DNA from: Escherichia coli | GTDB taxonomy: Bacteria > Pseudomonadota > Gammaproteobacteria > Enterobacterales > Enterobacteriaceae | Strand: one strand, 5' to 3' | Length of the DNA stretch: 64,000 nt | Assembly (NCBI RefSeq): GCF_046105845.1 | Contig: NZ_CP151004.1 | In this document: piece after piece, positions 33,529-39,027 of the stretch | Layout of the letters: the number at the start of each line of letters is the position of its first letter | How positions within the stretch are numbered: the first letter of the stretch is position 1 | Made by a program: the position numbers and the translations under genes | The notes under the pieces: model-generated | What the model was told of the DNA's origin: nothing | What the model saw: only the letters and a program-made list of their open reading frames with translations | The model's database searches: none

Positions 33529-34232
33529 GATTGTTCTCCATAGGTGAACTCATGGGCCATCCGCGCCCGTTGCCAGTGGCGTTTCCAGTGTACGGTAGTT
33601 TTGACATGATTTTTGCGTACATACTTGAAGACGTTATGCGAAAAGTCAGCGACGGAAAACGCATCACGATTCCGGCTGACAATGCCTTCCAGCGTACAGG
33701 GTTGCCCGGTTTGTGTATCCCAGGGATCGAACGCGCCGCGCGCATTGGTCAGCGCCAGAAAATCACGTTGCCAGCTTTTTTCATCATTCCCCGGCTGCGG
33801 GCCGGAGATTTCGGGAACGCAGGGGAAATCAAACAGAGCGGCGTAAAACTGCACCTCTTCCCAGCTCAGCCACATATCCTGGCAGCGAACGGCAAACAGA
33901 TAAAAATCCTGCTCCAGGGCGCGATATTCAATCGAATGGACGGCATAAAGATTTTCACCAAACAACTCCAGATCGCCGAGATCGTTTTTCAGCAGTTGCC
34001 AGCGTTGGCGAATTTTATAGGTCCATGCCGACTGCGTAGGCGCGGCATGGGAACGGGCAAACACGCCGTAGCGGTTAAGGCAGTTATTTTCACCGTCGAG
34101 TTTTTCTGTGTGCACCAATTGCGTGATGGCCTGTAAATCCTGCCAGTAATCGGTGTTAATACGGTCATCGCTGGTGGTGCCAGGGGAGAAAGGATAATGC
34201 CAGGTTCTCCCGTATTTTCGTTGGGTATTCAT
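33525..34232 (-). CDS. ATP-dependent RNA ligase, Rnl2-like nucleotidyltransferase
   Basis: 235 aa; motif [10 protein letters not shown] (KxDGxN), motif III-like [11 protein letters not shown], motif IV-like EGIVSR, motif V-like FKYVRKNH. Confidence 0.65.
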
Positions 34233-34456
34233 AATAATCCATTATTTTGTGTGTAATAAATGTACGCCCGCGAGGGTGCGAGTTATGGGGTTAAAAGAAA
34301 AATGTGAGTATCACCCGCGAAAGCGAGGGCGAAGGAAAAAGAGAATTAACAACCTGAGCGAATGCTCAGAACCGGTTAATGGTGAATGGAAGAGTTTGGG
34401 GCGGCGAAAAGATACACCGAATGAGTGGATAAAACAACCGTTTGCAAAATGAGCAA

Positions 34457-34480
34457 ATAAAAAGGGAGCCGCAGCTCCCT
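34457..34480 (-). terminator. Intrinsic terminator of emrB
   Basis: Minus strand: gggagctgcggctccc hairpin followed by tttttatttg. Confidence 0.7.
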
Positions 34481-34489
34481 TTGACAACC

Positions 34490-36028
34490 TTAGTGCGCAC
34501 CACCTCCGCCGCCACCTGCGCCAAATGGCGGTTTAGCAAACCACACCAGCCCCAGCAGGACGAGGAATATCCCAGCTGACATCCAGAAGATCTCATTGGC
34601 GGAAATAATCAGCCCCTGATTGGTGATCTGCTGGGCAATCCAGCCTGATGCCTGCTGTTGCGTCATCCCAAGCCCTTCCAGTTGACTATACATCGCCTGG
34701 GCATTCGGGTTGAACGGGTTTACCGACTCAGTCAACTGCGCATGGTGCATCGACTCGCGGTTGGTCCACATGGTAGTGGTTATCGACGTGCCGATAGACC
34801 CCGCCAGCGTTCGCGTAAAGTTAGAGAGGCTCGATGCTGCCGCCAGTCGTTCCGGTGGCAAACCAGACAGCGTAATGGTGGTCAGCGGCATAAAGAAGCA
34901 GGCCACCGCAAAACCCTGGATAAACTGCGGCCAGGCCGACGCGCCAAAATCCATACCTGGTTCAAAGGTATAGGCACGCCAGTAGAAGCAGACGGCATAC
35001 ATAATAAAGCTGAAGGTTACCAGCCGCCGCATATCCAGTTTATGCGCGAAGCGGCCGATAATCGGCGACAGGATCACCGGAATAATTCCTACCGGCGCAG
35101 AGGCCAGACCTGCCCACGTTGCCGTGTAACCGTAGACCTCCTGCAACAACTGCGGCAGCAGAACAATCGCGCCGAAGTAGAGCATATACGCGAGGCTGAT
35201 ACACAAGCAGCCGATGGTGAAGTTGCGCGACTTAAACAACGACAGATCGACTATCGGGTTATCGTCGGTCAGCTCCCAGACAATCAGGAAGCAGATAGCC
35301 ACCACTGCCACCACGGTAAGGATGATAATTTCCTGTGATGAGAACCAGTCCAGCTCTTTACCGCGGTCGAGCATAATCTGCAGGCTACCGATACCAATAA
35401 CCAGCAGTGCCAGCCCCACGGCATCAATCCGCCGCCGTTCGGTGCGGGTTTCACGTCCGCGCAGGGTTTGCAGTGTCATCAACACCACCGCCACGCCAAT
35501 CGGTACGTTGATGAAGAATATCCAGCCCCAGTGGTAATTGTCACTGATATACCCGCCGAGGATCGGGCCGCAAATTGGCGCGACAATCACCGTCATCGAC
35601 CACAACGCCAGCGCGATCGAGCGTTTGGCTGGCGGGTAGTTATTCAGCAATAGACTTTGCGAAAGCGGAATTAACGGCCCGGCGACAATCCCCTGAATCA
35701 CGCGGAAGAAGATCAGCATATTCAGGCTGCTGGAGACACCACACGCCCACGACGCAATAGCAAAGGCGATGGTTGACCAGAGGAACAGTTTCACTTCCCC
35801 GACGCGCTTTGCCAGCCAGCCGGTAAGCGGGATCGAGATGGCATTCGCCACCCCGAAAGAAGTGATTACCCACGTTCCCTGGCTGAGCGATGAGCCCAGA
35901 TTCCCGGCGATAGTGGGGATCGCCACGTTAGCAATGGTGGAGTCCAGCACCTGCATGAATGTCGCCAGTGACAGCGCAATCGTCATAATGACCAGTTGCG
36001 CGCCTTCCAGCGGTTTTTGCTGTTGCAT
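34490..36028 (-). CDS. emrB: Multidrug efflux MFS permease (14-TMS DHA2)
   Basis: Start at MQQQKPLEGAQL; large hydrophobic protein downstream of emrA. Confidence 0.93.
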   Translation of the reverse strand: MQQQKPLEGAQLVIMTIALSLATFMQVLDSTIANVAIPTIAGNLGSSLSQGTWVITSFGVANAISIPLTGWLAKRVGEVKLFLWSTIAFAIASWACGVSSSLNMLIFFRVIQGIVAGPLIPLSQSLLLNNYPPAKRSIALALWSMTVIVAPICGPILGGYISDNYHWGWIFFINVPIGVAVVLMTLQTLRGRETRTERRRIDAVGLALLVIGIGSLQIMLDRGKELDWFSSQEIIILTVVAVVAICFLIVWELTDDNPIVDLSLFKSRNFTIGCLCISLAYMLYFGAIVLLPQLLQEVYGYTATWAGLASAPVGIIPVILSPIIGRFAHKLDMRRLVTFSFIMYAVCFYWRAYTFEPGMDFGASAWPQFIQGFAVACFFMPLTTITLSGLPPERLAAASSLSNFTRTLAGSIGTSITTTMWTNRESMHHAQLTESVNPFNPNAQAMYSQLEGLGMTQQQASGWIAQQITNQGLIISANEIFWMSAGIFLVLLGLVWFAKPPFGAGGGGGGAH

Positions 36029-36044
36029 CACACGCACCTCTGGA

Positions 36045-37217
36045 TTAGCCAGCGTTAGCTTTTACGATATCGTCGATCAGTTTATTGACAGGTGCCAGGC
36101 TGATTTCACGCGCGGTGCTTACCGCTACCGGTGTGGAACGTACTTTATTTGCCAGTACCTGACCGTCACGGTTAGTGGTATTGACGCTCACCAGCGTGGA
36201 TAAACCGATACGCAGCGGGTATTGCTCCAGCTGTTTTTGGTCCAGTTCGATACGAACAGGCAGACGCTGAACGACTTTGATCCAGTTACCAGTCGCATTT
36301 TGCGCCGGAAGCAGCGAGAACGCGCTACCTGTGCCCATATCCAGACCAACCACTTTACCGGTGTATTTCACATCATCGCCGTAAATATCGGTGGTGATGG
36401 TGACCGGCTGACCGATGCGCATATTGGCAATCTGCGTCTCTTTAAAGTTGGCATCCACCCACATATTGGTGGCTGGAACGACCGCCATTAGCGGCGTCGT
36501 TGGGCTAATTTGCGCCCCAGGCTGTACCGCGCGGCGGGAGACATAACCGGTCATCGGACTGACAATACGGGTACGCTCCAGCGCCAGCCAGGCGTTACGT
36601 ACTTCGGTGGCAGCCTGTTGCACGGCAGGCTGATCTTCCAGTTTAGTCCCCAGAATCATCGCCTGATTGGCATTGTATTGTTGAATAGCGACGTCCAGTT
36701 GTGCCTGGGCACTGGTAACGGCGTCGCGGGCGTGTTGCAGCTCTTCGCGACCAATCAGGTTGGCATTGCCCAGCGGCACACGGCGGTTGTAGTCGCTTTG
36801 TGCTTTCGCGAGGGCGATTTTTTGCACCTCAATATTCGCCTGCAACTGTTTGCTGTTAATCATCAGCTGGTGGGTTTGGCGAACGCTGGAAGCCAGTGCA
36901 GTTTTGGCTTTTTCAAACGCCTGGCGAGCATCTGTCGGGTCGAGAGTGACCAGAACATCGCCTTCTTTTACAAAATCGGTGTTATCGGCCCAGACTTTCG
37001 TCACGCTGCCAGACACCTGAGACATAATTTGAATCTGATTCCCTGCCACGTATGCGTCATCGGTTTCTTCGAAATGACGCAGTACCAAAAACCAATAAAT
37101 CCCTATCGCTACGGCAATAATTATAAAGAGCAAGGTGAGAAGGAGGAGCAGACGCTTACGTTTGCCGCTCTTCTTTACCGGTTGCTGCGGGGTTTGAGTC
37201 TCCGCATTTGCGCTCAT
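36045..37217 (-). CDS. emrA: Multidrug efflux membrane fusion protein
   Basis: Start at MSANAETQTPQQ; single TM then coiled-coil/lipoyl-like domains. Confidence 0.93.
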   Translation of the reverse strand: MSANAETQTPQQPVKKSGKRKRLLLLLTLLFIIIAVAIGIYWFLVLRHFEETDDAYVAGNQIQIMSQVSGSVTKVWADNTDFVKEGDVLVTLDPTDARQAFEKAKTALASSVRQTHQLMINSKQLQANIEVQKIALAKAQSDYNRRVPLGNANLIGREELQHARDAVTSAQAQLDVAIQQYNANQAMILGTKLEDQPAVQQAATEVRNAWLALERTRIVSPMTGYVSRRAVQPGAQISPTTPLMAVVPATNMWVDANFKETQIANMRIGQPVTITTDIYGDDVKYTGKVVGLDMGTGSAFSLLPAQNATGNWIKVVQRLPVRIELDQKQLEQYPLRIGLSTLVSVNTTNRDGQVLANKVRSTPVAVSTAREISLAPVNKLIDDIVKANAG

Positions 37218-37272
37218 ATTGTTCTCCACGATCTTCTTAACTCATCGGCTGAGCCGACCTGCTTGCCAAAAA

Positions 37273-37296
37273 GGCCAGCATGTTGCGATGCTGGCC
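37273..37296 (-). promoter_or_regulatory. Perfect hairpin between mprA and emrA (possible attenuator/processing site)
   Basis: ggccagcat-gttgcg-atgctggcc flanked by an A-run and a T-run. Confidence 0.45.
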
Positions 37297-37343
37297 AGTC
37301 ATTTTTTCTTTTATAAATCTGGATTTTTGAGCGAGATGACGCG

Positions 37344-37874
37344 TTAGCTCATCGCTTCGAGAACCACACCGTCTTGTTCCATCTGGTCGAGACGGGAGAG
37401 CAATTTGCGGGTGATTTGCTCGAGCTGATCTTTTTCTGTTGTGCTGAGCGCGGACCAGAGTTGATGCAGGCAGTTATGCTGCGGTGGTAAAACCTCGCGC
37501 AAAAACTCGTGACCTTTTTCCGTTAATTGCAGATGCAGGCAGCGGCGATCGTTATCGCTTTCACGACGTTCAATCCAACCGCGTTTTTCCAGTTCATCGG
37601 CAATACGCGTCGCGTTGGTACGGGATGATCCAAGAGCACAACTCAATTCAGAAGGCTGAATACTGTGGTTTTCCTGAGACTCCAGCGTAATCAACGCCAT
37701 AAACAACGTCTCGTTAATCCCCTGAGCCTTCAGCATTTTATTGCGGTTCTCCAGCAGCTTGCTTTGCATGTGCATGCAAAGACGGGTCAGAAGGATCTCC
37801 TGATAAGGAAAATCTTCGTGGCGGCTGGCGCGAAATTTTAGCATTTGTTCAATGGGCGTAAACGAACTATCCAT
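37344..37874 (-). CDS. mprA: MarR-family repressor of emrAB
   Basis: 176 aa with MarR winged-HTH region. Confidence 0.93.
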
Positions 37875-37964
37875 TTGGGTATGACCTCATTAATTTCAGC
37901 CGATATAGTAACGACAGTGACAAATAAAGTAAATGTATTGTTTTAGAAAAATGATTCTTGTGGG

Positions 37965-38300
37965 TTATATAATCGCCATCACTTTCCAGGCGAGCCCGTA
38001 GGCCAGCGCACTAAGCAGTGTTGGGATGATAATGCTGCGTGTTTTATAGAAACTGGCACCCAGTACCGCGAAGCCGACCAGCGTGGGCACGAAACGGCGT
38101 GTATCGTGCATCACTTCTGGTGCGGTAGAGACAACCAGCAGAGCGCATATCGAGGCGATGCCAATGGTGTCGAGCAATATGCCTATCGCGCCACGTTTGG
38201 TTGGGCGGGTATTACCCACACGCAGGCGCAGCGGCAAATAGCGGAAGCAATAATTCGCCGCGCCAACCAGTAACCCAAGCAGCAGAACCTCATAGCTCAT
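37965..38300 (-). CDS. ygaH: Branched-chain amino acid (valine) exporter small subunit, AzlD-like
   Basis: 111 aa hydrophobic; overlaps ygaZ end. Confidence 0.85.
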
Positions 38301-39027
38301 CGGGCGCTCCTTGCCAGAATGCCTGGATTAACGCAGTGAGGCAGCCACAGACAATGCCTGCCAGAATGGCGACGGGAATAGAAAATAGCGTTACGCCTGC
38401 AAGGGCACCAACTAACGCTGCGGTAACGCAAAGAGATTGTTTGCGCTGGAAAGAGGCGAGCAGGAAACTCATAAAGAGTGCCGGAAGCATAAAACCTAAT
38501 GCTGCTTCAACGGCGGGATATCCTTGCAGCAAGCCGCTGCCGGAGAATGCCCCTATTACCGTACCAAATACCCACGATGACCATGAACTGAAGGCAATGC
38601 CGATCATCCAGTTCTCGCTCCAGCGGCGATTATTGCGTACCAGTTTTGCGGTTGCGGCGGCAAAAACCTCATCCGTCAGGCCAAATGCCCACAGGGCGGT
38701 TTTCGATTTTTGCAGACGCTGAATAATACGGCTACGCAGTGACGGGCCATACAAAACATGGCGAACATCCATTGCCATGACGGTCAGTGCAGCAACCCAC
38801 AAACTACTCCCGGCTGCCAGCATCGCGGTAATGACGAACTGGCTCGCGCCTGCATAAATGATGCAGGAGAAAAAAACGCTTTCGAGAGGAGAGAATCCCA
38901 GACGGGTCGCATTCAGACCGAACGCAAAGGCCACCGGAATATAACTAATAACAATCGGTAAACTGTCTTTGCATCCTTCCATGAAGGTCGCCGAACCAGG
39001 AGCAGGCTGTGGAGTAGGGCTTTCCAT
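38290..39027 (-). CDS. ygaZ: Branched-chain amino acid (valine) exporter large subunit, AzlC-like
   Basis: 245 aa polytopic membrane protein. Confidence 0.85.

Follow-up and report, generated by a model that had tools for sequence, protein, structure and literature searches.

The question that this locus raises is how a repressor and the efflux pump under its control can be transcribed from one autoregulated promoter and still yield unequal amounts of mRNA, and which part in this is played by a perfect inverted repeat lying between the two. In the window (the whole stretch of 64,000 nucleotides of Escherichia coli DNA that was analyzed) the gene mprA (emrR), identified from the list of open reading frames and from the RefSeq annotation of an identical sequence, occupies positions 37344-37874 of the minus strand, with its stop codon at 37346-37344, and encodes a MarR-family repressor of its own operon. 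It is followed by emrA, whose ribosome-binding site and start lie at 37215-37227 on the minus strand (GGAG at 37227-37224, start codon at 37217-37215), and by the gene named emrB in RefSeq (36037-34490, minus strand). The three genes are co-oriented and the mprA-emrA intergenic region measures 126 nt, in agreement with the coordinate map of MG1655 (NC_000913.3), which has the end of mprA at 2811300 and the start of emrA at 2811427. In the literature emrA and emrB are described as members of MprA's own repressed transcription unit, and the operator known for MprA is situated at the promoter preceding mprA. The original prediction had rightly taken mprA and emrA to be co-oriented without stating the strand; because the list of open reading frames places both on the minus strand, the functional orientation of the repeat is opposite to the plus-strand description given there.

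Reading of the sequence located a perfect inverted repeat of 9 bp with a 6-nt spacer at 37273-37296. Its arms (37273-37281 with 37288-37296) form nine perfect pairs, six of them G-C, around a loop at 37282-37287. The plus strand from 37268 to 37307 reads AAAAA GGCCAGCAT gttgcg ATGCTGGCC agtca TTTTTT, so that the 9-bp stem with an A-run and a T-run at its flanks, as first described, agrees with the sequence: the A5 run (37268-37272) is directly adjacent to the stem, from which the T6 run (37302-37307) is separated by 5 nt. In the sense of the mRNA, that is on the minus strand, the same stem-loop consists of a 5' arm GGCCAGCAU (37296-37288), the loop CGCAAC (37287-37282) and a 3' arm AUGCUGGCC (37281-37273), and it is followed directly by a U5 tract (37272-37268) and then by GG. 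The T-run of the plus strand corresponds in the RNA to an A-rich stretch, UUAUAAAAGAAAAAAU (37302-37317, minus strand), situated upstream of the stem and separated from it by UGACU. The stem begins 48 nt past the mprA stop codon, and with 47 intervening bases a terminating ribosome would be too distant to interfere with it.

The structure is far from what chance would produce. A count of perfect 9-bp hairpins that have loops of 3-8 nt and a T-rich tail behind them gave three loci in the 64-kb window, whereas dinucleotide shuffles contained 0.03 on average, and the observation of the hairpin can be regarded as confirmed. The remaining two such loci are at the 3' end of emrB and at 48110-48088 (minus strand). 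A pattern scan of positions 34000-39000 gave the mprA-emrA hairpin as the best terminator-like site. The folding energy of the hairpin ranged from -16.7 to -18.2 kcal/mol (centroid about -16.7) and that of the bare 24-nt stem-loop was -15.5 kcal/mol, while the folding z-score of the 61-nt stretch around it was modest (-2.4, with 4 of 200 shuffles folding equally well). No feature is annotated for the hairpin in the RefSeq records, nor does Rfam include a family for it.

Fold prediction gave a mean stem pair probability of about 0.98 when 60-300 nt of upstream RNA were included. A stem predicted to form in any upstream context leaves no competing antiterminator, and the site should therefore be constitutive rather than switch-like. 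This, together with an Rfam scan of 36000-39000 that returned no match in the mprA-emrA intergenic region at E ≤ 10, led us to reject a regulated attenuator or riboswitch.

Published transcript data place an RNA end at this structure. The 3'-end mapping by Term-seq that the original prediction had proposed as a check is available for MG1655, in which Adams et al. (2021, eLife, PMC7815308, Supplementary file 1, sheet LB 0.4) list a 3' end at 2811376 on the plus strand with a modest number of reads (861), of class 'orphan' and called in one of three growth conditions. The string reported around this end, ATTTATAAAAGAAAAAATGACTGGCCAGCATCGCAACATGCTGGCCTTTTT/GGCAAGCAGG, has 61 nt and matches positions 37318-37258 of the minus strand of the window exactly, which sets the end at the final U of the U5 tract (37268). 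Counted from the first base past the stop codon up to this end, the 3' UTR of mprA has 76 nt (37268-37343, minus strand). A second study (PMC12704781, PNAS December 2025) names the site a Rho-independent terminator, citing the Term-seq signal. By northern blot and 5' RACE the same study identified as the main mprA transcript in LB a ygaH'-mprA RNA of about 900 nt, and not the 3.5-kb operon mRNA; northern analysis, the other check that had been proposed, thus also shows a main mprA isoform ending at the terminator between mprA and emrA. For this RNA a length of 888 nt was predicted, with its start in codon 49 of ygaH (PMC12704781). Counting 888 nt upstream of 37268 leads to 38155 on the minus strand, the inferred position of this alternative start, which falls precisely in codon 49 of ygaH, and the published terminator and the hairpin of the window are therefore identical.

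The surroundings of this end were examined in the same data set. Adams et al. list no Rho-termination region between 2,811,200 and 2,811,499 in their BCM data (PMC7815308). Sheet LB 0.4 also lists no plus-strand 3' end after emrB, an absence weakly consistent with low amounts of full-length RNA. The sheet does hold a 3' end of 208,906 reads at MG1655 2814159 on the minus strand (about 34485 on the plus strand of the window), antisense to the last codons of emrB, which presumably marks the end of a convergent downstream transcript from the luxS side.

Taking these results together, we consider it highly likely that the hairpin and the U5 tract in the 3' UTR of mprA constitute an intrinsic (Rho-independent) terminator, acting as a leaky attenuator within the mprA-emrA-emrB unit. 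Three features that define intrinsic terminators are found here: a GC-rich stem-loop on the transcribed strand, a U-tract directly 3' of it and an in vivo RNA 3' end at the end of that tract. For a fourth, independence of Rho, the lack of a listed Rho-termination region is indirect evidence. In the proposed mechanism the polymerase would start either at the MprA-repressed promoter just upstream of mprA or at the second start inside ygaH and, once past mprA, it would pause on the U-tract as the GC-rich hairpin forms, in most cases releasing the RNA at 37268. The products would be short mRNAs carrying only mprA, of about 888 nt in the case of the start internal to ygaH, whereas the minority of polymerases reading through would provide the emrAB message. 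One regulated promoter would in this way yield more repressor mRNA than pump mRNA, and the output of the pump would equal the promoter activity multiplied by the fraction of read-through. Term-seq records termination and 3' trimming back to a stable hairpin as the same kind of end, and we infer true termination from its position. A search of the accessible literature for hairpin mutants or an in vitro termination assay found none.

Of the partial terminator suggested in the original prediction, termination itself is supported by the Term-seq and northern data, and its partial character indirectly. Some read-through is probably required, three observations pointing to a dependence of emrAB on transcription from upstream. 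A consensus scan for sigma-70-like promoters on the minus strand of the mprA-emrA intergenic region found none; emrA and emrB are described as part of MprA's unit; and in Salmonella the deletion of emrR raises emrA and emrB RNA 5.7- and 5.9-fold, respectively (PMC6469979). On inspection by eye, TTGGCA/CTGACA after the U-tract was likewise not accepted as a promoter, a suitably spaced -10 element being absent. A read-through fraction confined to a minority of polymerases, and a ratio of repressor to pump shifted towards the repressor, would follow from this mechanism and are put forward here as its expected consequences.

How this element has been maintained was studied in a scan for MprA with one genome per species, which provided 80 loci from Escherichia, Salmonella, Citrobacter, Enterobacter, Klebsiella, Raoultella, Kosakonia, Leclercia and other genera. 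The hairpin is kept in all 76 distinct mprA-emrA intergenic regions of Enterobacteriaceae. For the terminator stem and a second hairpin described below, 96.7% of the alignment cells are in standard pairs, compared with 13-49% when the 3' partner is slid. Changes on both sides of a pair occur in five pairs of the alignment of the 76 regions, as in Enterobacter sp. kpr-6 (GGCCUGCAU/AUGCAGGCC) and in some Kosakonia (AAGCCGGU/ACUGGCUU); most stem positions are invariant, and conservation is thus strong and covariation scarce. Orthologues have anything from 3 to about 10 nt of loop between arms that are still complementary, a variation that favors an RNA hairpin over a protein operator of fixed spacing.

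The conservation of the tail follows a different pattern, and it counts against a terminator, as do the shortness of the E. coli tract (five U and then GG), the modest folding z-score and the calling of the 3' end in only one of three growth conditions. An uninterrupted tail of U5-U6, with GG next, is present in 7 of the 76 regions, namely in all four rows of Escherichia and in three of the Kosakonia/Enterobacter sp. Bisph1 loci. The other 69 tails are interrupted and read UUUCUGA or something close to it, 60 of the 76 regions having UUUCUGAC/U, and yet their hairpins are intact, equally conserved and in many cases of higher stability (-16 to -22 kcal/mol). In the genera with interrupted tails either termination is weaker or the hairpin serves more than termination, and the conserved hairpin may have a role independent of efficient termination. 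Interrupted U-tracts are still able to terminate, although at lower efficiency.

The conservation of the hairpin even where the U-tract is poor is what gives rise to a broader proposal, which we regard as doubtful: that the 126-nt intergenic region is a composite post-transcriptional module decoupling the output of the pump from that of the repressor, in which Escherichia sharpened the terminator (UUUCU to UUUUU) on gaining the promoter internal to ygaH. Two further elements could take part in such a module. One is a second hairpin of 6 bp, GUCGGC-UCA-GCCGAU (37244-37258, minus strand), located 16 nt upstream of the emrA Shine-Dalgarno sequence; like the terminator it is conserved in 76 of 76 regions, with 98% of cells paired, a variable loop and compensatory changes in two of its six pairs. 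Lying downstream of the terminator, it is transcribed only in read-through RNAs. The other is the conserved UCCAGAUUU upstream of the terminator (37315-37323, minus strand), a candidate anti-Shine-Dalgarno sequence complementary to the Shine-Dalgarno region of emrA (37223-37233), which in the minimum-free-energy fold pairs with the invariant AAGAUCGUGGA around that site. The helix has 87.6% of its cells paired, the changes on the 5' side in Klebsiella and Raoultella keep wobble pairs, and one pair is broken in 17 other sequences. Since the Shine-Dalgarno side is invariant the helix shows no covariation and has no statistical support, and RNAalifold did not recover it; the folding model suggests that UCCAGAUUU may mask the emrA Shine-Dalgarno sequence in read-through RNA. 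In the composite module these two elements would act on the read-through RNA by processing, stabilization or translational masking.

Among the alternatives to termination, the one that survives best is that the hairpin is mainly a 3' stabilizer or processing boundary, where polymerases would read through, the RNA would be cut downstream and exonucleases would trim it back to the stem, protecting mprA while emrAB decays faster. The equal conservation of the hairpin in genera with the poor tail UUUCUGA and the mere 5 nt of the U-tract of E. coli would be expected of such an element, and exonuclease trimming would also generate ends 5 nt past a stable stem. The mapped end nevertheless lies exactly at the end of an uninterrupted U-run abutting the stem, which is the textbook position of intrinsic termination, no downstream cleavage site has been mapped, and the authors of the northern blot read the site as a terminator (PMC12704781). 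We judge this explanation quite unlikely.

The position of a perfect 24-bp palindrome-like repeat beside a gene of the MarR family could also suggest a DNA operator, at which a dimeric regulator such as MprA would control an intergenic promoter specific to emrA. A bioRxiv preprint (10.1101/392977) on evolution under CCCP selection lends this idea some appeal, attributing six mutations to the mprA/emrA intergenic region and saying that this region holds 'promoter control sequences'. Fixed half-site spacing is, however, incompatible with arms lying 3 to about 10 nt apart among orthologues, and it was this variation that led us to reject the operator. The intergenic region moreover has no sigma-70-like promoter on its minus strand, the known MprA operator is elsewhere, upstream of mprA, and an RNA 3' end maps at the hairpin, all of which leaves this explanation highly improbable. 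Intergenic mutations at mprA in other evolution papers lie upstream of the gene (37875-37964 in the window) and not at the terminator, and they point to selection on MprA translation or on the pairing site of the sRNA UhpU.

Hardly any credit can be given, finally, to a bidirectional terminator or a copy of a REP/BIME-like repeat without a specific role in the operon: the plus strand does carry TTTTTTCTTTT 5 nt beyond the hairpin, and the site is given by the scan on that strand too, but the T-run there is offset from the stem, there is no convergent gene, the Term-seq data contain no 3' end of the opposite strand near 2,811,3xx, and a dispersed repeat was rejected on the basis of a single-copy sequence (median of one place and maximum of two per genome among 5417 genomes).

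Variation within E. coli was then considered with regard to the leaky terminator. A search of 5426 complete E. coli genomes recovered the 44-nt region from 5412 of them, with a coverage of at least 80% of the query. The five natural variants with single-nucleotide changes that were sampled all spare the stem and the U5 tract, their changes falling in the flanks (37297, 37300 and 37311) and in the loop (37285). Two larger rearrangements were observed. E. coli STK78-E (NZ_CP162185.1) carries a perfect tandem duplication of 90 bp equivalent to 37324-37235 of the window (positions 396-575 of its locus, L081), and so presents two terminator hairpins with U5 and two second hairpins before emrA. In E. 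coli AF57 (NZ_OZ546943.1), from a blood culture, an IS4 element is inserted in the 3' arm of the terminator hairpin between the positions equivalent to 37276 and 37275 (about 401-445 of its locus, L087). The junction reads ...ATGCTG followed by TAATGCCAGTCAG..., and the transposase of IS4 runs antisense to both emrR and emrA. In this clinical isolate the terminator is thus destroyed by the insertion.

An intrinsic terminator at this position would explain how mprA and emrAB mRNA can be unequal when they arise from one autoregulated promoter. Mutations or insertions weakening the hairpin are a plausible route to more efflux pump, and with it to tolerance to CCCP, nalidixic acid and thiolactomycin, without loss of the repressor. 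The element is thus useful for reading intergenic mutations in evolution experiments and in clinical isolates.

With respect to known systems, the terminator between mprA and emrA has already been published (PMC12704781; Adams et al. 2021), and the element described here coincides with it to the base in locus, hairpin with poly-U, 3' end and 888-nt transcript, without any difference; in kind it is a common intrinsic terminator that serves as an attenuator within its operon. What the present analysis adds are the comparative data, that is, the conservation of the hairpin, the differences in U-tract among genera and the natural variants. Partial intrinsic terminators between co-transcribed genes are represented in E. 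coli by the rplL-rpoB attenuator and the rpsU-dnaG terminator. As in these two cases, a constitutive hairpin with a U-tract lies inside a single transcription unit with no known downstream promoter, and expression of the distal genes would be lowered; unlike in them, the proximal gene of mprA-emrA encodes the repressor of the operon itself, with the genes that it regulates as the distal cargo. The REP elements of malEFG, which are 3' stabilizing hairpins responsible for differential mRNA stability within an operon, resemble the mprA-emrA structure in that the proximal cistron ends in a stable stem-loop and its RNA segment is the more abundant one, and differ from it in that the mprA-emrA hairpin is single-copy, has a U-tract abutting it and has been taken for a terminator in the literature.
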